This document shows positions 7,131-52,982 of a DNA stretch of 53,145 nucleotides, piece by piece. Source of the stretch: Shigella phage 2019SD1. The translations under genes were made by a program, and so were the position numbers. Location: the sequence record MT360681. One strand, 5' to 3'. Each line of letters begins with the position of its first letter. Positions within the stretch are counted from its first letter, which is position 1. The notes beneath the pieces were generated by a model. It had not been told where the DNA came from, did no database searches, and saw nothing but the letters and a program-made list of their open reading frames with translations.

Positions 7131-7816
7131 CACGATAAGGAATTTCACGGCAACATTGATGCGTGGATAAACGCCGTTGATAATGGCCTGAAAGATTGCG
7201 TGGAGTTGTTCGCCGAAAAGTACACACAGATTTGGTTAAGCGTTCTCCGGTTGATACTGGTCGTTACCGTGCAAACTGGCAGGTAACAGCAAACAAGCCG
7301 CCATTGTATGCGCTTAACCAGTACGATAAGCACGGCGACAAAACTATCGCGGAAGGAAAGCGCGCCATATACGCGATTTTACGAGTTAAGCGTTCTCCGG
7401 TTGATACTGGTCGTTACCGTGCAAACTGGCAGGTAACAGCAAACAAGCCGCCATTGTATGCGCTTAACCAGTACGATAAGCACGGCGACAAAACTATCGC
7501 GGAAGGAAAGCGCGCCATATACGCGATTTTACGAGGTGGTGGCGCAGTAAGAGCCATTTATTTTTCTAACATGCTTATTTATGCTAACGCGCTTGAGTAC
7601 GGTCATTCAAAACAAGCGCCAGCGGGTGTACTTGGGATTGTAGCGGTTAAGTTGAGATCTTATATGGCTGAAGCAATAAAAGAGTCGAGGGCTAAAATGC
7701 ACTATGAATTAATGCTATCGGCGCGTAAAGCGCTGGCGACTGAATACGAAAGCAGATTCATGATCGCTTATGAGAACGTAGAGTTTACGCCACCGGTGAC
7801 GGTTCGCCGTGGTTGA
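7090..7816 (+). CDS. HK97 gp10-like tail/neck component; exact tandem 150-bp duplication (7235-7384, 7385-7534)
   Basis: Motif ..VDTGRYRANW.. and ..IYANALEYGH.. resembling HK97 gp10 family; N-terminus in a different frame suggests indels. Confidence 0.4.
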
Positions 7817-8268
7817 AGTTTGACTATGCCGAAGTTGACACAGAATACTTGTCATTGGATCGCAAATGCGTTTCTTATATTGGAATGATTCAGGTTGGCA
7901 TTGTGTTTCCACCGGTTACGGAACTGACAGGCCGCGCGTTCTCGCTAAAGAGATTGCGCAATTCTTTTACGATGGTAAAATGCTGGAGCATGGTTATATA
8001 TATGAGGGTGCAAGAGTTCACAAGCCGCTCAAGAGTGAAAGCGGTTGGCTTCTCCTGCGTTTCTTATATTGGAATGATTCAGGTTGGCATTGTGTTTCCA
8101 CCGGTTACGGAACTGACAGGCCGCGCGTTCTCGCTAAAGAGATTGCGCAATTCTTTTACGATGGTAAAATGCTGGAGCATGGTTATATATATGAGGGTGC
8201 AAGAGTTCACAAGCCGCTCAAGAGTGAAAGCGGTTGGCTTCTCCTGTAAGATTTTATGTTCGAATTGA
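7813..8268 (+). CDS. Hypothetical tail completion / terminator-like protein; tandem ~189-bp duplication (7866-8054, 8055-8243); reading frame ambiguous
   Basis: Two overlapping ORFs in different frames both span the duplicated unit. Confidence 0.2.
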   Translation: MKFDYAEVDTEYLSLDRKCVSYIGMIQVGIVFPPVTELTGRAFSLKRLRNSFTMVKCWSMVIYMRVQEFTSRSRVKAVGFSCVSYIGMIQVGIVFPPVTELTGRAFSLKRLRNSFTMVKCWSMVIYMRVQEFTSRSRVKAVGFSCKILCSN

Positions 8269-8286
8269 AACAAAGGAGTAAAAATT

Positions 8287-8910
8287 ATGCATTTACCAAA
8301 TGGATCGCAAATTTTCGTTGAGAGCAATCGCGGCAGCGAAATCCAAGCAACGGCAGTGTCAAACGCTAAAGATCCTGTATTCACCGTTGCATCTGGCGGC
8401 ACTACGTACAAGAAAGGTGATTATGTGATCATCACCGCTTCATCTTGGGGTAAGATGATTGATCGTGTTATGCGTGTGAAGGCTGACGGTGAAGAAACAA
8501 GCGTAACTCTTGAAGGTGTAGACACTACTGATCAGAACGTGTTTCCGCACGGCGGTACTGCATCTTTTGCCAAGATTGATGCATGGACGGAGATCCCTTG
8601 CGTTCAGGATTTGTCGCAGGACGGTGGTGAACAGCAATACTACACTTATCAGTGTTTGTCAGATGACCGGGAACAGCAGTTACCTACATATAAGAGCGCC
8701 GTTTCTCTGACATATACTTTTGCTCACGAATACGATAACCCGATCTATCCGCTATTACGTTCAGCAGATGAATCAGGCGAAGTAACCGCTCTTCGCATGT
8801 ATGTACCAAAAGCAAAAGAGATGCGTTGCTGGGCTGGTGTGCTTTCGTTTAACGAGATCCCGCAAACGACCGTTAACGAAATGGAAACTGTTTCCTTTCT
8901 GTATCACTGA
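8287..8910 (+). CDS. Major tail protein (probable)
   Basis: GAGT-like RBS plus ATG at 8287; position immediately upstream of chaperone and tape measure genes; followed by strong terminator. Confidence 0.4.
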   Translation: MHLPNGSQIFVESNRGSEIQATAVSNAKDPVFTVASGGTTYKKGDYVIITASSWGKMIDRVMRVKADGEETSVTLEGVDTTDQNVFPHGGTASFAKIDAWTEIPCVQDLSQDGGEQQYYTYQCLSDDREQQLPTYKSAVSLTYTFAHEYDNPIYPLLRSADESGEVTALRMYVPKAKEMRCWAGVLSFNEIPQTTVNEMETVSFLYH

Positions 8911-8952
8911 AAGGTCGATTCACCTTCCTACCTTCTCAAGTAGAGTAATAAC

Positions 8953-8976
8953 AAGGGGCGTTGCGCCCTTTTTGTT
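8953..8976 (+). terminator. Rho-independent terminator after major tail gene
   Basis: GGGGCG-TTG-CGCCC stem-loop followed by TTTTTGTT. Confidence 0.6.
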
Positions 8977-9011
8977 ACTGTACAATCAAGATACACGATT
9001 CATAATCAATT

Positions 9012-9032
9012 CTTTTAACAAAAAGTGCTATC
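9012..9032 (-). promoter_or_regulatory. Conserved promoter-like motif copy, leftward orientation
   Basis: CTTTTAACAAAAAGTGCTATC. Confidence 0.35.
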
Positions 9033-9043
9033 AAGGGAAAGAA

Positions 9044-9412
9044 ATGTCAAAAATGAAATTGACGATTGGGCCGCTTCCTGACTTTAAGTTACCAGTGAAA
9101 TTTGCAATGCCTAACGGAGAAGATCAAACAATTATCTTCACAGTTCGCCACCGCAAAACAAGTGAGATTCACGAGCGATACACGTCAGATACTCCAATGA
9201 GCGATGTTGAAATGATCACCTTCCTTGCTTCTGGTTGGAATCTTGATGATGAATTTAACGAAGAAAATATTAAACAGCTTCTTGATTACTACCCAGCAAC
9301 AGCAATCGGGTTAACTAGCGCATACATGAAAGCGCTTGCGGGGCAGCGAGTAAAAACTAAAAAGGGCGGTTTACCTGTTTTATCAGAAACCGCCGACAGA
9401 TGCAGAGCTTGA
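9044..9412 (+). CDS. Tail assembly chaperone (lambda G-like)
   Basis: ATG after AAGGGAAAG RBS; ~120-aa acidic protein immediately upstream of tape measure gene; A-AAA-AAG heptamer near 3' end. Confidence 0.5.
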   Translation: MSKMKLTIGPLPDFKLPVKFAMPNGEDQTIIFTVRHRKTSEIHERYTSDTPMSDVEMITFLASGWNLDDEFNEENIKQLLDYYPATAIGLTSAYMKALAGQRVKTKKGGLPVLSETADRCRA

Positions 9413-9632
9413 GGCTGTTGGCCTTACAAGGGCAGACTATGAAGGAGAAGATCCGCCAGAGGTTATATTTGATGAAAGCATGATGCAATCATGGGATATA
9501 TTTTGCGCAATGCAAACGCAATGGAGATGTTCAGGCGGTGGCGCTTACGGATTTGATTATAATGTCTTGCCTATGCTTTTGAGATTTACAAGGTTGAGGA
9601 TCGCGAGATGTCAGAACAATACGCAGGCTTGA
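9375..9632 (+). CDS. Tail assembly chaperone T-domain-like extension (frameshift product, GT-like)
   Basis: Alternative frame reads ..PTDAELEAVGLTRADYEGEDPPEVIFDESMMQSWDIFCAMQTQWRCSGGGAYGFDYNVLPMLLRF.. resembling lambda gpT-type domains; overlaps end of G-like gene and start of tape measure. Confidence 0.35.
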   Translation: MFYQKPPTDAELEAVGLTRADYEGEDPPEVIFDESMMQSWDIFCAMQTQWRCSGGGAYGFDYNVLPMLLRFTRLRIARCQNNTQA

Positions 9633-12286
9633 CGCTTGGGGTTGATGTATCTCAACTCAACAATGCTGTAAAGTCTTTGCAGCAATTCAAAAAGGCAAAC
9701 GACGACGCAAAGGGAAGCGTTGAGAACTTTGTTGATTCAGAGGTTGTTGCAAGGCAAAGAGCTAAACAATTGGCTGAGGAATTGGCGAAGCAGAAACAGG
9801 AATTTAAAGCAATTCAGTCTGCAATAGATCCAACAGCCAGCAAGATGGATAAGTTGCGTCAGGCTGCGACACAGCTTGATGCACTATGGAAAAAGGAATT
9901 GTGCCGGATGATACATTCTTTGAATCCGGATGATACATTCTTTGAATTAGGTTCAATTCTTGAGACACAGCAAAACAAGCTGATCGCAACGAAAAAGGCG
10001 CTAACAGAAGAAGGCCGAGCGGCGATTGAGGAAGCAAAGAATAAAGCGGGGCAGAGGCTGAGGCCAGAAAGTTCATTGCGGCATTACAGGCACAAGCAGA
10101 CGCAGCGGAAAAACAAAATCAGAGCTTGTAGAAATGAGAGCCGCACAACTTGGAGTAGAGCCGCACAACTTGGAGTTAGTGCTGAGGCAGCGCCATTTAT
10201 TGCAAAAATGAAGGAGCAGGAAAAACAAGCCTCAAAACTTGGCGTTTCTATGGGGCAGTACAAGCAAGCAATGGCGCAATTACCAATGCAGATCACTGAC
10301 GTTGTTACTTCTCTTGCTTCAGGAATGCCAGTATGGATGGTCGCAATCCAGCAGGGTGGACAGATCAAGGACTCATTCGGTGGTGTTGCGAATACGTTCA
10401 AAGCACTAATGACATTTGTCACGCCGTTAAGTGTAGGAATGACGGCGCTGACTGGTGCTCTTGGTTATGCTGCATATAATGCATACAAAACAAATGCACA
10501 ACTGAAGGAGATCACAAAACCGTTCAGGGGTAACTGGTCTTTCTGGTCAGAACAATACGCAGGCTTGACGCTTGGGGTTGATGTATCTCAACTCAACAAT
10601 GCTGTAAAGTCTTTGCAGCAATTCAAAAAGGCAAACGACGACGCAAAGGGAAGCGTTGAGAACTTTGTTGATTCAGAGGTTGTTGCAAGGCAAAGAGCTA
10701 AACAATTGGCTGAGGAATTGGCGAAGCAGAAACAGGAATTTAAAGCAATTCAGTCTGCAATAGATCCAACAGCCAGCAAGATGGATAAGTTGCGTCAGGC
10801 TGCGACACAGCTTGATGCACTATGGAAAAAGGAATTGTGCCGGATGATACATTCTTTGAATCTGCAATTTGCGAAGAACACCTATGAGGATATAGGAAAG
10901 ATCGTAAAAGATGCGAATAAGGATATGGCGGAACGAGCAGCACGCATCGACAGAGAAAACCTTTCCTTAAACAGAGTTCGAGCGGCGCAAGAGGCTTTAA
11001 ACAAAGCCATAGAGGATCAGAAGAACGTAGCAAGGACAGCAGACGAAGAGTTGAAAAACGAGCGGCTGAGAACGTTGAGTTCAGGCGAAAAGAGCTTGAA
11101 GAGGCGAAGAAGGCGCAGCAGCAAAGGAGAAAGTTGGCGGAGTTGTAAAAGCACCAACAGAGCAGCTGCAAAAGAAAAGGCCGAGATAGGCGATCAGATT
11201 GTTTTGCAACAGAGAAAGAACAAGCAATACCGGACGGGCTTAAATTCATTCAGCAAACTTCAGATGCCATTGATGCTAAACTTGCGACAGTCTGGAGCTA
11301 CAGATATGCAAATCAAGCGAGAGCTTGAGTTGAAGAAGTTGCGAACTGATTATGTTGCTGGCGGGGTAGTATCGACGATGAAATTTATCAGCAGATGGAA
11401 GCAAAGCGATATGTACGGCAACGTGCAAGATATTGCAAGCGAGGCGCTCAACGGTCTAACCAACCAAATGGCTACATTCCTTGCAACAGGCAAGGCGAAC
11501 TTTAAGAGCTTCGCAACGTCAATCATCCAAATGATTATCCAGATGATCACGAAGATGGTTATCTTTAATGCCATATCTGGTGCGATTGGCGGTGACACTT
11601 GGACGATTGGAAGCCTTCTTAAAATGTTGGATTTGCAACTGGTGGATACACTGGCGACGGCGGGAAGTATGAGCCAGCAGGTGTTGTCCATAAAGGCGAG
11701 TTTGTCAACGAAGGAGGCCACGAAGCGGATCGGAGTTGGAAATCTTTACAAAATGATGCGCGGTTATGCAAATGGCGGCGTTGTTGGTGGCACTTCATAC
11801 ACTGGCGGCGGAATTTCATCAGGAGCAACAAACCTTAATATTGGTGGGATTAGCGTTGATATTAACAACGGAAACGATCCAAAAGGGTTGGAGACTGGCG
11901 TAAAAATGATTTTCACTGATATGATTAAGCGTTCCTGTACGCAGGGTGGGGAAGTTTACGAATTTGTTATGTCTAAGCGGGGTGATAGTGAAACTACGAA
12001 GGAGGCCACGAAGCGGATCGGAGTTGGAAATCTTTACAAAATGATGCGCGGTTATGCAAATGGCGGCGTTGTTGGTGGCACTTCATACACTGGCGGCGGA
12101 ATTTCATCAGGAGCAACAAACCTTAATATTGGTGGGATTAGCGTTGATATTAACAACGGAAACGATCCAAAAGGGTTGGAGACTGGCGTAAAAATGATTT
12201 TCACTGATATGATTAAGCGTTCCTGTACGCAGGGTGGGGAAGTTTACGAATTTGTTATGTCTAAGCGGGGTGATAGTGAAACTTGA
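9608..12286 (+). CDS. Tail tape measure protein; contains displaced duplicate (9612-9925 = 10548-10862), tandem 288-bp C-terminal duplication (11708-11995, 11996-12283) and short tandem repeats near 9900 and 10140
   Basis: 892-aa ORF with hydrophobic segment ..[21 protein letters not shown].. typical of tape measure proteins; position after chaperone genes. Confidence 0.7.
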
Positions 12287-12930
12287 GCAATTCAAATGGT
12301 GCACGCAAACGCAAGGAGGCGGCGGCACTATGACCACATCAAATAACGACAGGAAATCTCATTTGGTAATGGTTACACGCAGGTTGCTTCAGGAGGGTTT
12401 AACACGGTACGCAGGGAGTTTTCCATTGTCTATGTTGGCAAGGATTACAGAGACGTTGTTGACTTCCAAACTTGAGCAATTCAAATGGTGCACGCAAACG
12501 CAAGGAGGCGGCGGCACTATGACCACATCAAATAACGACAGGAAATCTCATTTGGTAATGGTTACACGCAGGTTGCTTCAGGAGGGTTTAACACGGTACG
12601 CAGGGAGTTTTCCATTGTCTATGTTGGCAAGGATTACAGAGACGTTGTTGACTTCCTGAATGGACACAGGCTGAAGCCGTTTTATGGTTTATGCCTGACG
12701 GTCAACCCGGTCTATTCAGGGTAAAATCTGGTAGCGTTGGATTAACTCCAATATCAGCAACCGTTCAGGAAGTGAAAGCAACATTTACTGAGCAATTTAC
12801 ATCAATGCAACCTGACGGTCAACCCGGTCTATTCAGGGTAAAATCTGGTAGCGTTGGATTAACTCCAATATCAGCAACCGTTCAGGAAGTGAAAGCAACA
12901 TTTACTGAGCAATTTACATCAATGCAATAA
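12234..12930 (+). CDS. Minor tail protein (lambda M-like, tentative); two tandem duplications (12282-12470/12471-12659 and 12694-12810/12811-12927)
   Basis: Position between tape measure and L-like gene; split into two ORFs each made of an exactly repeated unit. Confidence 0.3.
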
Positions 12931-15150: not shown

Positions 15151-18100
15151 GTGGCTGAAAATATGATAACGGGCAGTAAGGGTGGATCATCAAAACCTTA
15201 TGTTCCGAAAGAGATGGAAGATAACCTGATCTCAATCAACAAAATCAAAATCCTTCTTGCCGTTTCCGATGGCGAGTGCGATCCAAATTTTACACTTCGC
15301 GATCTGTATCTTGATGATGTTCCGGTAATTGCAGACGACGGAACTGTTAACTACCGTGGTGTGAAAGCTGAATTTCGACACGGAACACAAACGCAAGATT
15401 ACATCCGGGGTTTACTGACACATCAAGCGAAGACGCTGGCGCGTGACATTACGACGACAAATCCTTATGTAATTTCTGTAACCAACAAAACATTATCGGC
15501 TATCAGAATAAAAATTCTAATGCCAACAGGCATTAAGCAAGAGGATAACGGCGATCTTGTAGGTGTTAAGGTCACTTATGCTGTTGATATGGCTGTTGAC
15601 GGAGACTCTTACAAAGAAGTATTGATAGACACCATCGAAGGTAAAACGCGTTCCGGTTACGACAGAAGTCGAAGGATTGACCTTCCGGCATTTAATGATC
15701 GCGTATTGCTTAGGGTTAGAAGGGTTACGGCAGACAGCACATCATCTCGCGTTACTGATCTGATTAAGCTACAAAGTTACGCTGAGGTTATTGATGCAAA
15801 ATTCCGTTACCCTCTGACTGGTCTTGTATACGTTGAATTTGACAGTGAGTTGTTCCTAACCAGATCCACGCTGGCGCGTGACATTACGACGACAAATCCT
15901 TATGTAATTTCTGTAACCAACAAAACATTATCGGCTATCAGAATAAAAATTCTAATGCCAACAGGCATTAAGCAAGAGGATAACGGCGATCTTGTAGGTG
16001 TTAAGGTCACTTATGCTGTTGATATGGCTGTTGACGGAGACTCTTACAAAGAAGTATTGATAGACACCATCGAAGGTAAAACGCGTTCCGGTTACGACAG
16101 AAGTCGAAGGATTGACCTTCCGGCATTTAATGATCGCGTATTGCTTAGGGTTAGAAGGGTTACGGCAGACAGCACATCATCTCGCGTTACTGATCTGATT
16201 AAGCTACAAAGTTACGCTGAGGTTATTGATGCAAAATTCCGTTACCCTCTGACTGGTCTTGTATACGTTGAATTTGACAGTGAGTTGTTCCTAACCAGAT
16301 CCCGAGAGTATCACGGTTCATGGGATGGTACTTTCAAGAAAGCGTGGTCGAACAATCCGGCGTGGGTTCTTTATGACATTATCACAAACCAGCGATACGG
16401 ATTAGATCAGCGAGAACTTGGCGTGCAGGTTGACAAATGGAGTCTTTACGAAGCGGCGCAATACTGCGATCAGAAAGTGCCTGACGGAAAAGGCGGCACA
16501 GAGCCGCGTTATCTATGCGACGTTGTTATTCAAAGCCAGATTGAGGCTTATCAGCTTATTCGTGATATTTGCTCAATCTTCCGAGGCATGAGCTTTTGGA
16601 ATGGGGAGAGCCTGTCAATCGTCATTGATAAGCCGCGCGATCCGTCGTACATCTTCACCAATGACAACGTTGTTGATGGCGATTTTCAGTACACAACAGC
16701 AAGCGAAAAGAGCATGTACACGCAGTGCAACGTGACGTTCGACGACGAACAAAACATGTATCAACAGGACGTGGAGGGCGTATTCGACACTGAGGCAGCA
16801 TTGCGCTTTGGATACAATCCAACAAGCATAACAGCTATCGGATGTACACGCAGGAGTGAGGCTAATCGGCGCGGTAGATGGATACTAAAACCAACTTGCG
16901 CAGCACTACGGGATACTAAAACCAACTTGCGCAGCACTACGGTAAACTTTGCTACTGGACTGGAAGGCATGATCCCATCAATAGGTGATGTTATCGCGGT
17001 GTCAGATAACTTTTACAGCAGCAACCTGAAATTAAACCTTTCAGGGCGCGTGATGGAAGTTTCCGGCTTGCAGGTGTTCGTCCCGTTTAAGATTGACGCG
17101 CGACCGGTGATTTCATTATCATCAACAAGCCTGACGGAAAGCCAGTTAAGCGCACAATCTCAAAGGGTTGTGTCGTGGGATAAAGTACCTTACGCATCGC
17201 TGTATGAAATGCAATGGCGAAAAGGTGATGGCAACTGGCTGAATACACCACAGACCGCAAACAAAGAAATTGAGGTTGAAGGTATTTATTCAGGCAACTA
17301 CCGGCCAAACACTTCATTGTCGGATGCGGTTAAGTTAACTGGCGCGCCGGGCTCCCCACCTTACCAGTCAGCGAAGCTGTCACAATTCTTGACCGGGCGA
17401 TGTAGAACCGGAAGCGGAAACAGATCTCACCCTTACCGGCCAAACACTTCATTGTCGGATGCGGTTAAGTTAACTGGCGCGCCGGGCTCCCCACCTTACC
17501 AGTCAGCGAAGCTGTCACAATTCTTGACCGGGCGATGTAGAACCGGAAGCGGAAACAGATCTCACCCTTACCGGTTTGGCATTCGTGTTAAGTGGGGTAT
17601 GCCAGAAGGGAGCGGAGACACGGCATACATTGAGCTTCACCAGTCGCCAGATGGAACAGCGGAAAACTCAAGCCTGTTAACGCTGATACCATACCCACAA
17701 TATGAATATTGGCACGGTACGCTTCCGGCTGGTCATGTTGTATGGTATCGAATCAGAAGCGTGGACAGGATCGGCAATGTTTCCGGTTGGACGGATTTTG
17801 TTCGCGGCATGGCTTCAGATGATGTTGAGGCTGTTTTAGGCAATATTCTTGATAAGATTTTTGATACAGAAGCAGGAAAGGATCTGAAAGAGAATGCCAT
17901 TGATAGCGCAAACAAAATCAAGGATCAGGCGCAAAGCATCATTCAAAACGCATTGGCGAATGATGCAGACGTTAGGATCATGAGGAAGGAAAACGGAAAA
18001 CGCAAAGCCGAGTTTAGGCAATCAATCCAATTGATCGCAAGTGAAACTGAGGCGCGCGTTACCGCAATGACGCAACTCAAGGCTGAATTTGACGAGGAAA

Positions 18101-18771
18101 TAACCAGCGAAGTAACAAGGCTTGATCAGGCAATTGCAACAGAATCGGAAACGCGAGCAACAGCCATTGAGGAATTGAAATCACAGATTGGTGATGATAT
18201 TCAGGGGCAATTAACGCGGGTTGAGGAAGCGATTGCAAGCGAAACAGAGGCGCGCGTTTCTGCTGATACAGCATTAACAGCGAAGTTTGGAGATGTTGAA
18301 TCAGCGCTGACAGAAAAACTTGATTCATGGGCTGGCGTTAATGGAGTTGGCGCACAGTACGCAATGAAACTTGGATTGACATACAACGGGCAGAAGTACA
18401 GCGCCGGAATGGTCATGCAGTTATCAAACAGCGCTCAAGGGTTGATTTCACAAATACTTTTGATGCTGGAAGATTTGCGATCAGTCGAAAATAACCAAGT
18501 TTTCATCAATAGCTTGTTAGTTAAGGATGGTTCAATAAACAATGCGAAGATTGGAAACTTTATTCAGTCAAATAATTGGGATGGTAACAATGGTTGGCAC
18601 ATAAATAAAAATGGCGATGCGTATCTAATGAATGCAACAGTTAGAGGTTCACTTTACGCATCAAACGGAAATTTTTCTTTTAATGGTACTAACAATACAG
18701 TTGTTATAAATAACAATGGTATAACTGTAAACCTTCCTAATGGCGGTCGCGTTGTTGTTGGTGTTTGGTAA
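15151..18771 (+). CDS. Tail tip / host specificity protein J (central tail fibre); tandem 435-bp duplication (15433-15867, 15868-16302), 135-bp tandem duplication (17301-17435, 17436-17570), 30-bp tandem repeat near 16890
   Basis: Clear similarity by eye to lambda gpJ, e.g. ..WDGTFKKAWSNNPAWVLYDIITNQRYGL..VDKWSLYEAAQYCDQKVPDGKGGTEPRY.. Confidence 0.85.
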   Translation: MAENMITGSKGGSSKPYVPKEMEDNLISINKIKILLAVSDGECDPNFTLRDLYLDDVPVIADDGTVNYRGVKAEFRHGTQTQDYIRGLLTHQAKTLARDITTTNPYVISVTNKTLSAIRIKILMPTGIKQEDNGDLVGVKVTYAVDMAVDGDSYKEVLIDTIEGKTRSGYDRSRRIDLPAFNDRVLLRVRRVTADSTSSRVTDLIKLQSYAEVIDAKFRYPLTGLVYVEFDSELFLTRSTLARDITTTNPYVISVTNKTLSAIRIKILMPTGIKQEDNGDLVGVKVTYAVDMAVDGDSYKEVLIDTIEGKTRSGYDRSRRIDLPAFNDRVLLRVRRVTADSTSSRVTDLIKLQSYAEVIDAKFRYPLTGLVYVEFDSELFLTRSREYHGSWDGTFKKAWSNNPAWVLYDIITNQRYGLDQRELGVQVDKWSLYEAAQYCDQKVPDGKGGTEPRYLCDVVIQSQIEAYQLIRDICSIFRGMSFWNGESLSIVIDKPRDPSYIFTNDNVVDGDFQYTTASEKSMYTQCNVTFDDEQNMYQQDVEGVFDTEAALRFGYNPTSITAIGCTRRSEANRRGRWILKPTCAALRDTKTNLRSTTVNFATGLEGMIPSIGDVIAVSDNFYSSNLKLNLSGRVMEVSGLQVFVPFKIDARPVISLSSTSLTESQLSAQSQRVVSWDKVPYASLYEMQWRKGDGNWLNTPQTANKEIEVEGIYSGNYRPNTSLSDAVKLTGAPGSPPYQSAKLSQFLTGRCRTGSGNRSHPYRPNTSLSDAVKLTGAPGSPPYQSAKLSQFLTGRCRTGSGNRSHPYRFGIRVKWGMPEGSGDTAYIELHQSPDGTAENSSLLTLIPYPQYEYWHGTLPAGHVVWYRIRSVDRIGNVSGWTDFVRGMASDDVEAVLGNILDKIFDTEAGKDLKENAIDSANKIKDQAQSIIQNALANDADVRIMRKENGKRKAEFRQSIQLIASETEARVTAMTQLKAEFDEEITSEVTRLDQAIATESETRATAIEELKSQIGDDIQGQLTRVEEAIASETEARVSADTALTAKFGDVESALTEKLDSWAGVNGVGAQYAMKLGLTYNGQKYSAGMVMQLSNSAQGLISQILLMLEDLRSVENNQVFINSLLVKDGSINNAKIGNFIQSNNWDGNNGWHINKNGDAYLMNATVRGSLYASNGNFSFNGTNNTVVINNNGITVNLPNGGRVVVGVW

Positions 18772-18775
18772 TGCA

Positions 18776-18797
18776 AAGGGGCTTTTGCCCCTTTTTA
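18776..18797 (+). terminator. Rho-independent terminator after J
   Basis: GGGGC-TTTT-GCCCC followed by TTTTT. Confidence 0.6.
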
Positions 18798-23843: not shown

Positions 23844-24003
23844 TGAATTGCAAAATCAACCGTGTCGAGCAATTGGTAAACTTCAAGTTGCCTACTCCTC
23901 AGACTCCGCCTACTGGCTGTTGCGCAACAGCCAGTAGGCGGAGTCTGAGGAGTAGGCAACTTGAAGTTTACCAATTGCTCGACACGGTTGATTTTGCAAT
24001 TCA
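23844..24003. repeat. Perfect 160-bp palindrome (two 80-bp inverted arms, centre at 23923/23924)
   Basis: Right arm is exact reverse complement of left arm. Confidence 0.85.
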
Positions 24004-25156: not shown

Positions 25157-25337
25157 AAAACAACGACGCAGGATGGTCGCCAATCGTTTGTGGAGGTAGT
25201 CAGTCGCAATGGGGTTATGCTCTAAAATCAGCTTTCGGAACTATTGCTAATAACCAAGCTTGGCCTGATACAGCTATACACCACTCATTCGCCCCGGTGC
25301 AACAATCTTTTTCATTGATGCACCGTTTCAAGCGGCT

Positions 25338-27494
25338 GTGATTGGTGATAACGCTCATAACAGGATGTTTTATTTTCTCATACCGGGACGTCGGGTTGGT
25401 CCTTTTGATAGTGTTGGTGCTAATACGATTATTTACTCGCCAGACGGATCTTATAGGTTGGTTATCAGAGATGACGGATTACTAGTTTATCAGAAAGGTG
25501 ACGGAACTGAAACCAAGCCATTTGAAATTGCGACTGGTGGGACTGGGGCAACTGATGCAGCAGGTGCTCGCAATAATCTTGGGCTTGGCAGCTATACACC
25601 ACTCATTCGCCCCGGTGCAACAATCTTTTTCATTGATGCACCGTTTCAAGCGGCTGTGATTGGTGATAACGCTCATAACAGGATGTTTTATTTTCTCATA
25701 CCGGGACGTCGGGTTGGTCCTTTTGATAGTGTTGGTGCTAATACGATTATTTACTCGCCAGACGGATCTTATAGGTTGGTTATCAGAGATGACGGATTAC
25801 TAGTTTATCAGAAAGGTGACGGAACTGAAACCAAGCCATTTGAAATTGCGACTGGTGGGACTGGGGCAACTGATGCAGCAGGTGCTCGCAATAATCTTGG
25901 GCTTGGGACTGGGCAAGACGTTCAATTTAAGAGCATTACGGCTACAGACGGCGATATTCTAGTTCCGCAAACTCACGTTGTAGGATGTAAAACTAATACT
26001 GGCGGTAACAAAAATATCTATCTGACGAACTTACCGGAGAATCAACTTCAGGTGGGTGGGACTGGCGCTCAATCTGCAAATAACGCCGCTGAAACTGCAA
26101 AAACGGCGCTGTTACGGCGCGAAATGAGGCTGAGGAATTTGCTAAAAGCCTTAATGCTGAAAATCTACCATGTATTGCTGGGCGACGCTCAAGGTTATAT
26201 CACTGGATACGATACGAAATGGCGAGAGCAATTAACACTCATTCGCCCCGGTGCAACAATCTTTTTCATTGATGCACCGTTTCAAGCGGCTGTGATCAGT
26301 GAAGTTATCAGCGATACACAAATCCGCGCTATCACAACTGGCGGCGCTGAAATTGGGCGGAGCAACTACATTATTTTGCTGCATGACTCAATCACTGTTG
26401 ATGGCCCGGCGCAAGATGTTGCGGAAACTCTGCGTTACTATCAAAGCAAAGAAACTCAGATCGAGGAAGCTATTGAATTTTTCAAAAACTTTGATCTAAA
26501 ACAGTTGCAAGATCTGGCTAATCAGGTTAAAGGTGATGCAGAGAAAACAGCCAATGATCGTGCTGCTACTGAACAACTGAAAAACGACACTCAACATATA
26601 AAGGATTCTGCTGTTGCTGAAACAAACCAGATTAAAGCAGACACTAACGCAATCAAGGCGCAAACACAACAGATTAAAGATTCTGCGATAACGGAAGTTA
26701 ATTCCGCACGCGATCAAGGTGTTTTAGCTGTAAACCAGACTAAAGATCAGGCTGTTTCAGAAATGAATCAGATAAAGGGTGATGTTTCGAATCTGAAAAC
26801 GAAGCTATTTCAGCAAGGGATTCAGCCCAGCAATACATGGCAATGGACGCTCAAGGTTATATCACTGGATACGATACGAAATGGCGAGAGCAATATCAGT
26901 GAAGTTATCAGCGATACACAAATCCGCGCTATCACAACTGGCGGCGCTGAAATTGGGCGGAGCAACTACATTATTTTGCTGCATGACTCAATCACTGTTG
27001 ATGGCCCGGCGCAAGATGTTGCGGAAACTCTGCGTTACTATCAAAGCAAAGAAACTCAGATCGAGGAAGCTATTGAATTTTTCAAAAACTTTGATCTAAA
27101 ACAGTTGCAAGATCTGGCTAATCAGGTTAAAGGTGATGCAGAGAAAACAGCCAATGATCGTGCTGCTACTGAACAACTGAAAAACGACACTCAACATATA
27201 AAGGATTCTGCTGTTGCTGAAACAAACCAGATTAAAGCAGACACTAACGCAATCAAGGCGCAAACACAACAGATTAAAGATTCTGCGATAACGGAAGTTA
27301 ATTCCGCACGCGATCAAGGTGTTTTAGCTGTAAACCAGACTAAAGATCAGGCTGTTTCAGAAATGAATCAGATAAAGGGTGATGTTTCGAATCTGAAAAC
27401 GAAGCTATTTCAGCAAGGGATTCAGCCCAGCAATACACATGCGTTTTCTCCCGTGTTGCATGTTAATGTCAATGCAGATAATAGCATTTGCTAA
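25338..27494 (+). CDS. Long tail fibre protein; 318-bp tandem duplication (25271-25588, 25589-25906), 600-bp tandem duplication (26297-26838 and 26897-27438) and frame disruption near 26100
   Basis: N-terminal ..GGTGATDAAGARNNLGLG.. motif common to phage tail fibres; long coiled-coil-like repeats rich in A/T/N/Q/K. Confidence 0.6.
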   Translation: MIGDNAHNRMFYFLIPGRRVGPFDSVGANTIIYSPDGSYRLVIRDDGLLVYQKGDGTETKPFEIATGGTGATDAAGARNNLGLGSYTPLIRPGATIFFIDAPFQAAVIGDNAHNRMFYFLIPGRRVGPFDSVGANTIIYSPDGSYRLVIRDDGLLVYQKGDGTETKPFEIATGGTGATDAAGARNNLGLGTGQDVQFKSITATDGDILVPQTHVVGCKTNTGGNKNIYLTNLPENQLQVGGTGAQSANNAAETAKTALLRREMRLRNLLKALMLKIYHVLLGDAQGYITGYDTKWREQLTLIRPGATIFFIDAPFQAAVISEVISDTQIRAITTGGAEIGRSNYIILLHDSITVDGPAQDVAETLRYYQSKETQIEEAIEFFKNFDLKQLQDLANQVKGDAEKTANDRAATEQLKNDTQHIKDSAVAETNQIKADTNAIKAQTQQIKDSAITEVNSARDQGVLAVNQTKDQAVSEMNQIKGDVSNLKTKLFQQGIQPSNTWQWTLKVISLDTIRNGESNISEVISDTQIRAITTGGAEIGRSNYIILLHDSITVDGPAQDVAETLRYYQSKETQIEEAIEFFKNFDLKQLQDLANQVKGDAEKTANDRAATEQLKNDTQHIKDSAVAETNQIKADTNAIKAQTQQIKDSAITEVNSARDQGVLAVNQTKDQAVSEMNQIKGDVSNLKTKLFQQGIQPSNTHAFSPVLHVNVNADNSIC

Positions 27495-31206: not shown

Positions 31207-31303
31207 TGCAATATGTGAATCACATCATGCCACCATCGCGTGTGACTCACCGCAAGACTAGCAAGGAGAAGATAATTTGTACAAGAAGGAGTTTAATTAT
31301 GGC

Positions 31304-31808
31304 AATGACTGATAAAGGCGATTATCTGGAGTTTTACGAAAGAGATCCGACGGATACGCTAAAGGAGGAATCACACCAGATCGGGGCGTTTCAATGGTTA
31401 ACTTATGCTCATCCTGAATTTCTTGCCGGCATACGAAAACGAGGGCGACAAGGGATCGCCACCGCAATGATGGATCAGCAAGCAGGACTCGTTAAGGGAG
31501 TAAGTGATTTCATCATCCTGATTGGATTAAAGGCCGTTATCCGTTCGCGGCAAGCAATGACTGATAAAGGCGATTATCTGGAGTTTTACGAAAGAGATCC
31601 GACGGATACGCTAAAGGAGGAATCACACCAGATCGGGGCGTTTCAATGGTTAACTTATGCTCATCCTGAATTTCTTGCCGGCATACGAAAACGAGGGCGA
31701 CAAGGGATCGCCACCGCAATGATGGATCAGCAAGCAGGACTCGTTAAGGGAGTAAGTGATTTCATCATCCTGATTGGATTAAAGGCCGTTATCCGTTCGC
31801 GGCAATAG
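31304..31808 (+). CDS. Hypothetical nuclease-like protein (VRR-NUC-like, tentative); exact tandem 252-bp duplication (31303-31554, 31555-31806)
   Basis: AGGAG RBS plus ATG at 31304; ..GLVKGVSDFIILIG.. loosely resembles VRR-NUC motif. Confidence 0.3.
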
Positions 31809-43631: not shown

Positions 43632-44774
43632 TTGTGGTGCTTAAGCGTGGATAACATCAAGTATCCGATCACGTTCCACACGGTTGGTAACTCAACTATT
43701 CGATTCACATCTCGCGACAATGGCGTTTATAGCGACGGTCAGAAATCAGAGTTGAAAGTTGATTTCTTTGTCAATGGTCACAACAAATTCAATCCGCACA
43801 ACGAAAAAGATAAGGTGTACTACGTGGAAGATATTACAAAACACTTGTTTGGCGAAACTCCATTCGGCGGCGGGAAGACGTCAATTCAACAAATCATTGA
43901 CGATCAGATCCGCAAGGCAGCCGTTGAAATGAAAGCGCCCGGAGGCTGGCGTATTGATAAGGGCGCCTTTACCATTCAAGAAATCGTAACGCAGGGCGCG
44001 ATTGAAGACATGCCGCTTGGCGCTTCAATCATCGGCATCAAAGACGACAACGGCGACTGGCAGGATGTTTCATTCCTGTTAAGCAGATCGAAGTACACGA
44101 CGACCTGTTTTGCCTCCCGGCGCATCATGGCAGCTACAAGGGCAAAGCCTTTGCCGCAGAGCTTGACATCAAGCGCGGAACGATTGTTAAGTGGAAGGCA
44201 AAAGTGTAAAGATAACATCAAGTATCCGATCACGTTCCACACGGTTGGTAACTCAACTATTCGATTCACATCTCGCGACAATGGCGTTTATAGCGACGGT
44301 CAGAAATCAGAGTTGAAAGTTGATTTCTTTGTCAATGGTCACAACAAATTCAATCCGCACAACGAAAAAGATAAGGTGTACTACGTGGAAGATATTACAA
44401 AACACTTGTTTGGCGAAACTCCATTCGGCGGCGGGAAGACGTCAATTCAACAAATCATTGACGATCAGATCCGCAAGGCAGCCGTTGAAATGAAAGCGCC
44501 CGGAGGCTGGCGTATTGATAAGGGCGCCTTTACCATTCAAGAAATCGTAACGCAGGGCGCGATTGAAGACATGCCGCTTGGCGCTTCAATCATCGGCATC
44601 AAAGACGACAACGGCGACTGGCAGGATGTTTCATTCCTGTTAAGCAGATCGAAGTACACGACGACCTGTTTTGCCTCCCGGCGCATCATGGCAGCTACAA
44701 GGGCAAAGCCTTTGCCGCAGAGCTTGACATCAAGCGCGGAACGATTGTTAAGTGGAAGGCAAAAGTGTAAATAG
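43632..44774 (+). CDS. Hypothetical early protein; exact tandem ~561-bp duplication (43650-44210, 44211-44771); C-terminus frame-disrupted
   Basis: 380-aa ORF consisting of two identical 187-aa units. Confidence 0.35.
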   Translation: MWCLSVDNIKYPITFHTVGNSTIRFTSRDNGVYSDGQKSELKVDFFVNGHNKFNPHNEKDKVYYVEDITKHLFGETPFGGGKTSIQQIIDDQIRKAAVEMKAPGGWRIDKGAFTIQEIVTQGAIEDMPLGASIIGIKDDNGDWQDVSFLLSRSKYTTTCFASRRIMAATRAKPLPQSLTSSAERLLSGRQKCKDNIKYPITFHTVGNSTIRFTSRDNGVYSDGQKSELKVDFFVNGHNKFNPHNEKDKVYYVEDITKHLFGETPFGGGKTSIQQIIDDQIRKAAVEMKAPGGWRIDKGAFTIQEIVTQGAIEDMPLGASIIGIKDDNGDWQDVSFLLSRSKYTTTCFASRRIMAATRAKPLPQSLTSSAERLLSGRQKCK

Positions 44775-51257: not shown

Positions 51258-51520
51258 ATGATCAAGATCAATCCCGTTCAGCGAGATAAAGATAAGGTTA
51301 CGCGAGCAATGGACGCAGCGCCAGTAATGCGCGCCGGACGCGTGGCACTTCCAGAATATCATCCTATGCTGGCTGAGATACTCGCTGAAGTTGCGGCGTT
51401 CACATTCGATGATTCGCATCCTCATGATGATATTGTTGATAACATCATTGATGCTGTTAACATTGAAATGAACATGGCAGATGATCCGGTAGGAAGAATG
51501 AAAAATTGGCAGGTTTGCGG
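51258..51520 (+). repeat. Displaced copy of the large-terminase C-terminal coding segment (more complete than the copy at 52796-52980), fused to a promoter-motif copy
   Basis: 51258-51520 matches 52796-52980 except that the downstream copy lacks ~75 bp; occupies the position where the terminase N-terminus would be expected. Confidence 0.75.
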
Positions 51521-51523
51521 AAC

Positions 51524-51545
51524 AAATAGCACGAATCGACAAACC
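51524..51545 (+). promoter_or_regulatory. Conserved promoter-like motif copy (variant) upstream of large terminase reading frame
   Basis: AAATAGCACGAATCGACAAACC. Confidence 0.3.
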
Positions 51546-51589
51546 AATATAGGAAGACTTAACAGCGGCGCAAAACGCGCCGTTAAGGA

Positions 51590-52982
51590 AATGAGCGAAT
51601 ATTCATTCGAAAAGATGATCCGCATTTGGTTTCAACTTCTCGGGGCAAAGGTTCTTAGGAAACTGGCATTTCAGTTACCTATGCAGCGAAGTGCAGGAGC
51701 TATGGCCGGAAAGCTGGCAAAGGCGAGCGCAAAGGACTTGATTGTAACCGATGTCGGCAAGGTTAAATTGCAAGTTAACTCGCGTTCTATCGGTGGTCAG
51801 GTTACTGGTCTGCGTGGCGGCTACATGGATGATGGATTTACTGGTATGCTGGTTCTTGATGATCCAGACAAGCCGGATGACATGCTTTCTAAGGTGAAGC
51901 GCGAAGCCGGACACATGCGCCTAAAGAACACGGTGCGATCACGTCGAATGAAGGACACAACGCCAATCGTAATGGTCCAGCAACGGCTACACGTCAATGA
52001 TTCAACATGGTTCATGACAAACGGCGGCATGGGCGGCATCCAGTTTAAGGTGGTCAGTATTCCGGCGCTCGTTACTAAGGAATATCGCGAAACGCTTCCT
52101 GATTGGTTAAAGCCTGAGTTTGATCGCGATGTTTTATCCAGTAAGCCAGTAATGATTGATGGTGTTGCTCATTATTCATTCTGGCCTGCTAAGAAAGCGC
52201 GGAGGAATTACTTGCACTTCGAAATGCTGATCCGTACACGTTCGCCAGTCAGTATCAGCAACAGCCTGTTGCGCTTGGCGGTAACGTGTTTAAAACGGAG
52301 TGGTTTCAGTATTACGGCAGCAGCGAGAAATGCACGCTACCAAAACCGGATCGCTTTGAGTATACATTTATCACGGTTGATACCGCGCAGAAAACGGGTG
52401 AGCTTAACGACTACTCCGTATAAAGATCGCGTTTACTTCATTGATGGTGTTCGCGGAAAATGGGAAGCACCAGACCTTGAAACTAATTTTGTTGCGTTCG
52501 TTAATCAGTGCTGGAAGCGTAATAAAGAATGCGGAACGTTGCGAAGGATTCATGTTGAAGATAAGTCATCTGGCACTGGCTTGATTCAGAGCGCAGCGAA
52601 AAAATTATATAAAGATCGCGTTTACTTCATTGATGGTGTTCGCGGAAAATGGGAAGCACCAGACGAAACTAATTTTGTTGCGTTCGTTAATCAGTGCTGG
52701 AAGCGTAATAAAGAATGCGGAACGTTGCGAAGGATTCATGTTGAAGATAAGTCATCTGGCACTGGCTTGATTCAGAGCGCAGCGAAAAATTATGATCAAG
52801 ATCAATCCCGTTCAGCGAGACTGGCTGAGATACTCGCTGAAGTTGCGGCGTTCACATTCGATGATTCGCATCCTCATGATGATATTGTTGATAACATCAT
52901 TGATGCTGTTAACATTGAAATGAACATGGCAGATGATCCGGTAGGAAGAATGAAAAAATTGGCAGGTTTGCGGAACAAATAA
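51590..52982 (+). CDS. Terminase large subunit (N-terminal region uncertain; internal frame change near 52195; 180-bp tandem duplication 52425-52610 approx)
   Basis: ..ADPYTFASQYQQQPVALGGNVFKTEWFQYYG.. and C-terminal ..FTFDDSHPHDDIVDNIIDAVN.. typical of terminase nuclease domain; Walker A-like ..SRGKGS.. only visible in a shifted frame near 51600. Confidence 0.55.

Follow-up and report, generated by a model that had tools for sequence, protein, structure and literature searches.

Comparison with closely related phages points, with a high degree of confidence, to a canonical -1 G/GT tail assembly chaperone cassette at 9044-9632 of Shigella phage 2019SD1 (MT360681), in which the T domain would appear to lie in the +1 frame because a base was lost from a homopolymer inside the slippery heptamer. 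The ordinary -1 G/GT chaperone cassette is an already known type of system. Here, the window is the entire 53,145-nt stretch of this record, to which all coordinates refer, and the group to which it belongs is Hanrivervirus (Drexlerviridae, T1-like).

The G/T pair is located on the forward strand, with the major tail protein gene (8287..8910) upstream and the tape measure protein ORF (9608..12286) downstream on the same strand, and the homologous annotations in the relatives agree with this order; KarlJaspers, JLBYU09 and morffagbaw all carry a 'major tail protein' annotation at the corresponding place. Both flanking ORFs are damaged in the window. The major tail protein ORF is truncated by 1-nt losses (gaps at ~8894), the version in the relatives being 663 nt long, and the tape measure ORF is rearranged internally, with 9610-9926 occurring again at 10546-10862 and 11708-11995 again at 11996-12283. 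The interval between the major tail protein gene and G contains, at 8954-8977, a terminator-like hairpin (GGGGCG TTG CGCCC, then TTTTT), at a position equivalent to that of an annotated rho-independent terminator of T1 (18770-18796). Being upstream of G, this hairpin may lower the expression of G/GT and the tape measure relative to that of the tube protein.

As written, the G-like ORF extends from the ATG at 9044 to the TGA at 9410-9412 (122 aa), ending where the preliminary description of this DNA had placed its end. It matches Phage_TAC_4 (PF08748) over residues 1-104 (E 2e-30, 106 bits against a cut-off of 21.1), as well as phrog_569 and phrog_17368. A second frame, whose codons start at positions divisible by 3, stays open from 9354 to a TGA ending at 9632 and encodes ..MQTQWRCSGGGAYGFDYNVLPMLL..; as written it overlaps the start of the tape measure at 9608. 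This frame matches DUF1799 (PF08809) with an E value of 1.4e-9, over profile positions 2-59 of 80 only, and the T segment matches phrog_680 and phrog_17368. These Pfam and phrog matches, together with a placement downstream of the major tail protein and upstream of the tape measure, bear out the earlier assignment of the locus to a G/GT-type chaperone pair.

Five phages (morffagbaw, PGN590, KarlJaspers, slyngel and JLBYU09) share ~95-96% identity with the window over 8287-9900 and ~98% over 9044-9700, where substitutions relative to the closest database genomes amount to about 1-2%. No record at least 99% identical to the window was present in a collection of 50,697 phage records. The window makes up the entire IMG/VR contig IMGVR_UViG_2974632794_000001 (53,145 bp), and the locus taken from it is identical to window 7544-10855. 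Within 9030-9700, exactly three length-changing differences separate the window from three ~98% identical genomes, namely a run of six A's reduced to five, a run of five T's reduced to four and a 102-bp gap. Window 9044-9700 is accordingly 657 nt long against 761 nt in all 40 of the 40 phage-database records that cover the region, the excess being made up of +1, +1 and +102.

The first of these differences falls within the shift site. To GAGTAAAAAACTAAAAAGGG of the relatives corresponds GAGT-AAAAACTAAAAAGGG in the window, where the A-run at 9352-9356 is one A short; what remains of the heptamer is AAAAAC (9352..9357, forward strand), whereas every relative that has this site reads A_AAA_AAC. 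The loss of the A puts the native G stop codon TAA (9358..9360, forward strand) out of frame in the window, so that G continues through 17 false codons to 9412 and T seems to be in +1 rather than -1. The last 17 codons of G in the window (9359-9409) are therefore an artefactual read-on in the wrong frame, and native G consists of 9044-9357 plus the missing A (forward strand, 105 aa); G of the relatives is 318 nt long (105 aa) and terminates in CGA GTA AAA AAC TAA. Once one A is put back into the window, its G is 105 aa long and identical to that of KarlJaspers, the heptamer and the TAA stop reappear, and T falls in -1. In IMG/VR, a scan for the exact pattern located the six-A form in six contigs and the five-A form only in the window's own contig.

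The preliminary description had placed T in the +1 frame, which is correct for the window as written (T stands at +1, equivalently -2, to G, where 9044 mod 3 = 2) but is confined to this record, all relatives being -1. Of the two explanations it had offered, a 1-bp indel masking a standard -1 shift agrees with the A missing from the heptamer, and a conventional -1 arrangement in the corrected sequence, which it had named as evidence against +1, is what appears as far as the comparison with relatives reaches. Its slippery heptamer A-AAA-AAG could not be located: bases 9358-9364 read T AAA AAG (codons ACT AAA AAG), and the A-runs there comprise five A's each. The overlap of G and T in the window holds only AAAAAC (9352-9357), T_AAA_AAG (9358-9364) not being a perfect X_XXY_YYZ heptamer. 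T_AAA_AAG was rejected as a shift site on two further grounds. Its -1 frame (codon starts 1 mod 3) reads KGRFTCFIRNRRQ..., which has no T homology and meets a stop at 9482-9484, and in the relatives the same bases are occupied by the G stop codon and the spacer ahead of the hairpin.

At 14 other loci, where G identity ranges from 100% to 38%, AAAAAAC closes G and directly precedes a TAA or TGA stop, and T lies in -1. These include eight near-identical genomes or contigs, IMG/VR contigs at 75% (two), 56%, 52% and 41% G identity, phage T1 (GCA AAA AAC TAA) and the Dhillonvirus 'welsh' (GAA AAA AAC TAA, 38% G identity). The window is the sole +1 case among the loci compared, and no relative with T in +1 was found among these loci and the phage-database records compared. 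In the Webervirus Klebsiella phage PWKp14, G ends in GCA AAA GTT TAA (1218-1227) and T is still in -1; as this phage has no A_AAA_AAC heptamer, that precise site does not occur throughout the family, and the lack of any perfect X_XXY_YYZ in this phage implies that the shift takes place elsewhere, perhaps at A_AAA_G or G_UUU_AA. At the DNA level, the stretch from ~9332 onwards (the 3' end of G, the shift site and the T domain) is 82-90% identical over many Drexlerviridae genera, and the 5' part of G has no DNA match in those genera among the phage-database hits.

A putative stimulatory stem-loop is predicted at 9365..9394 on the forward strand, as GGCGGUUU(N14)AAACCGCC, with an 8-bp stem that begins 7 nt after the heptamer, inside the range of 5-9 nt expected for a stimulatory structure. 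Its folding energy is -19.6 kcal/mol (z = -2.28). The consensus helix is kept in six of eight diverse relatives, the other two giving no prediction. In Dhillonvirus the stem differs in sequence (GGCGGCG/CGCCGCC) and has the same spacing, and 3 pairs are changed on both sides. Since the hairpin falls on codons for conserved T residues (RAVYLxYQKPP), its conservation does not count as separate evidence and lends only moderate support to its putative role as a stimulator of the shift. The combination of A_AAA_AAC abutting the G stop with a predicted hairpin 7 nt further on appears to be conserved from T1 and Hanrivervirus to Dhillonvirus, which is a modestly useful result in itself.

Native G-T might also be produced by RNA polymerase slippage on the six A's, with two A's gained or one lost, instead of by a ribosomal -1 shift, on a run that is shorter than those usually productive in bacteria. 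The X_XXY_YYZ phasing of the site with the G frame, conserved down to 38% G identity, and the hairpin at the classical 7-nt spacing both fit a ribosomal -1 shift. We therefore consider polymerase slippage improbable, although the site is a pure A-run and slippage of this kind is used by some bacterial and phage genes (PMC5009743).

In the ribosomal -1 cassette that we favour, most ribosomes would stop at the TAA of G and release G alone, and a few percent would slip -1 at A_AAA_AAC, probably aided by the abutting stop codon and the hairpin 7 nt downstream; the slipped ribosomes would then read CTA AAA AGG... and complete a 209-aa G-T fusion whose T part is the DUF1799 domain. In E. coli, A_AAA_AAC is far less shift-prone than A_AAA_AAG, which would suit a low GT:G ratio. 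The shifting of ribosomes at this site, the part played by the hairpin and the functions of G and GT are inferred by analogy with lambda G/GT. There, the tape measure is coated by G and by the corresponding portion of GT, whose T portion brings in the major tail protein (PMC5009743); GT is needed for lambda tail assembly according to the account that the same paper gives of Levin 1993 and Xu 2013. A_AAA_AAC is among the recognised -1 sites, and g-t of the haloarchaeal virus HCTV-2 shifts on this heptamer (PMC5009743). T1-like phages have been described as having a lambda-like G/GT frameshift (PMC6763657), and our literature search returned annotation-level statements only and no experimental demonstration of GT in T1-like phages.

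The closest system is formed by T1 genes 40/39 (NC_005833, 18872-19189 and 19339-19506) and their Drexlerviridae orthologues, such as TLS tfmS/tfmA and KarlJaspers bas06_0015/0016. These phages share with the window the gene order, the Pfam families and the hairpin GGCGGTTT..AAACCGCC; their order is major tail protein, terminator, G, T, terminator and tape measure, their G ends in GCA/GTA AAA AAC TAA and their T is in -1. The window differs from them in the defects of its record, i.e. five A's for six, four T's for five and 102 bp missing. Lambda G/GT and the present pair are alike in their position upstream of the tape measure, in a short G, in a T that is, or here would be, reached by a -1 shift at an X_XXY_YYZ site near the end of G and in the lack of an independent start for T; the lambda heptamer, however, is G_GGA_AAG, whereas here A_AAA_AAC directly abuts the stop. 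The lambda proteins presumably belong to Pfam families other than Phage_TAC_4 and DUF1799.

Many database records list G and the T tail as two genes and not as a joined frameshift product, and in several relatives each of the two pieces is annotated as a tape measure chaperone. T has no translation start of its own, the -1 frame of the relatives opening just 40 nt before the G stop, and the annotated T ORFs that start with ATG (e.g. bas06_0016) comprise the last 63 codons only. In the T1-like Salmonella phage 36 (NC_029071, 12303-12845), the G/T region is split into three short CDSs with T homology in two frames, and it probably has a similar indel problem.

The two remaining length differences affect the 3' end of T. 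In the window, the T-domain coding sequence (9357..9607, forward strand) would be read from the CTA at 9357 following the -1 slip. The fusion of the relatives, ...GQRVKN-LKRAVYLFYQKPP...MMHSK, 209 aa long when a -1 slip on A_AAA_AAC is assumed, matches Phage_TAC_4 and, over the full profile (2-80 of 80), DUF1799; the whole G+T fusion (residues 1-208) aligns with phrog_17368. By tblastn, T homology in the window follows the frame of 9357 as far as a T-run and continues thereafter in the tape-measure frame. This run of four T's (9577..9580, forward strand) has five T's in all relatives, which read CTATGCTTTTTGAG where the window reads CTATGC-TTTTGAG; the missing T is the second frameshifting 1-nt loss and yields a false 16-residue T tail ending at 9632. 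Alignment with the relatives, in which the gap takes up columns 581-682, places the junction of the 102-bp loss at 9607..9608, between GAG and ATG. Lost with these 102 bp are the final 19 codons of T with its stop, a hairpin resembling a terminator (GCGCCTACGGGCGC and then a run of T's) and the tape-measure RBS GGAGG; the loss ends exactly at the tape measure ATG, and both the hairpin and GGAGG are present in all relatives. A terminator is annotated in T1 at the position equivalent to 9607/9608. When the A and the T are both restored, GT of the window agrees exactly with the first 190 of the 209 residues of KarlJaspers GT, after which the 102-bp gap sets in, and since this gap is a multiple of three and removes the T stop, the repaired T frame would enter the tape measure directly. 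The earlier reading of a T frame running to 9632 into the tape measure thus stands in that the frame is open and matches DUF1799, while its end at 9632 is an artefact of the T loss and the 102-bp loss. As written, the locus cannot be functional in any frame.

Losses of this kind are found throughout the window. It has 6 homopolymer runs of at least six bases against 65 and 66 in two relatives, and 216 of the 254 one-base gaps relative to KarlJaspers are bases absent from the window. Shortening was counted for KarlJaspers runs whose base is kept in the compared sequence, with morffagbaw as the natural-relative control: six-base runs are shortened in 25 of 26 cases in the window (morffagbaw, 1 of 39), five-base runs in 41 of 97 (1 of 119) and four-base runs in 11 of 299 (1 of 352). 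The six A's of the slippery site and the five T's within T are run types that this record loses. The missing A and T therefore form part of a window-wide, run-length-dependent loss, which would be a property of how the record was produced and not of the phage. In addition, the window is rearranged relative to all relatives by duplications, deletions and inversions, no other public sequence among the phage database records was found to contain its rearrangement junctions, and only 16 of 31 large genes are recovered to at least 90% in one frame. The window is not a faithful genome sequence.

The A could in principle have been truly absent, through mutation, from the sequenced DNA, e.g. in a defective or minority genome, in which case the phage would have no GT, and homopolymers are indeed hot spots for genuine slippage mutations as well. 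Yet the run-length-dependent loss touches nearly all long homopolymers of the window, GT is needed for tail assembly in lambda in the account cited above, and a genome with so few large genes in one frame would be intolerable for a replicating phage, all of which makes a real mutation most improbable.

A non-standard recoding event was the other explanation offered in the preliminary description. It would take a record that is correct as written and a +1 or -2 event in the 9354-9409 overlap, and it is scarcely credible: the frames as written do stand at +1, but the ~98% identical relatives are -1 with a single homopolymer length as the only difference at the site, six-base runs are shortened almost without exception, the five-A form is unique to this contig, and 220 nt downstream the T frame is interrupted in its turn, with its last 19 codons and its stop both absent. 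In the G frame, window 9354-9412 reads AAA ACT AAA AAG GGC GGT TTA CCT GTT TTA TCA GAA ACC GCC GAC AGA TGC AGA GCT TGA, and inspection of it for a +1/-2 shift motif (CCC_UGA, CUU_UGA or a run that allows -2 re-pairing of both tRNAs) gave none. Precedents exist in tail chaperone shifts of -2 (Mu) and +1 in other phages (Xu 2004; PMC5009743) and in annotated actinophage shifts, 350 of 2,718 of which (~13%) are forward (PMC10274946). The geometry of the Mu -2 and other +1 systems is the same as that of the window as written; unlike them, the window owes it to a missing base, its relatives are all -1 and its overlap has no such motif. There is next to no likelihood that the five-A run is genuine and T is reached by a +1/-2 shift, e.g. 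by a single-tRNA -2 slip of tRNA-Lys on ACU AAA AAG. If it were so, the direction of recoding would have switched very recently in an otherwise all -1 genus, and a true +1 chaperone shift here would join the known -2/+1 examples.

The canonical -1 cassette with a base lost from its heptamer carries a caution for genome mining, in that one homopolymer error in a slippery heptamer makes a textbook -1 cassette look like an exotic +1. Slippery sites are rich in homopolymers and hence especially prone to homopolymer loss. Before records with errors of this kind are mined for recoding events, reads or related genomes should be consulted.

The rearrangements have features of their own. About 31 direct duplications are present in the window, nearly all of them exact, e.g. 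7235-7534, 7867-8244, 9610-9926/10546-10862, 11708-12283, 12279-12656, 12694-12927, 15433-16302, 25271-25906, 31302-31805 and 43650-44771. In window coordinates, their start-to-start offset is a multiple of 3 in 30 of the ~31; the same jumps are not multiples of 3 in the coordinates of the relatives (220, 190, 289, 436, 562...) because the units already hold 1-nt losses. Among the nine duplicated units with unambiguous boundaries, seven start on a codon boundary of the enclosing open frame, and five duplicated units end exactly at the last codon ahead of the stop of the enclosing ORF. The phase of the duplications and the 1-nt losses inside the units together suggest that the rearrangements are later than the 1-nt losses. 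The duplications look ORF-aware, as though they were products made in silico.

The stretches 17304-17571, 23844-24003, 24936/26060, 27535/28363, 37009/37386, 51258-52981 and 21-922 comprise short inverted segments, perfect inverted repeats and the genes for the terminase large subunit and portal, which are scrambled in comparison with every relative. None of these junctions occurs in any phage record. The contig ends, 175-256 and 53065-53145, share ~82 bp at 98.8% identity, which fits terminal redundancy or circular permutation of the assembly. Among the T1-like records, 19 (MG0656xx) carry the label 'Campylobacter phage' with C. jejuni as host, an odd host assignment.
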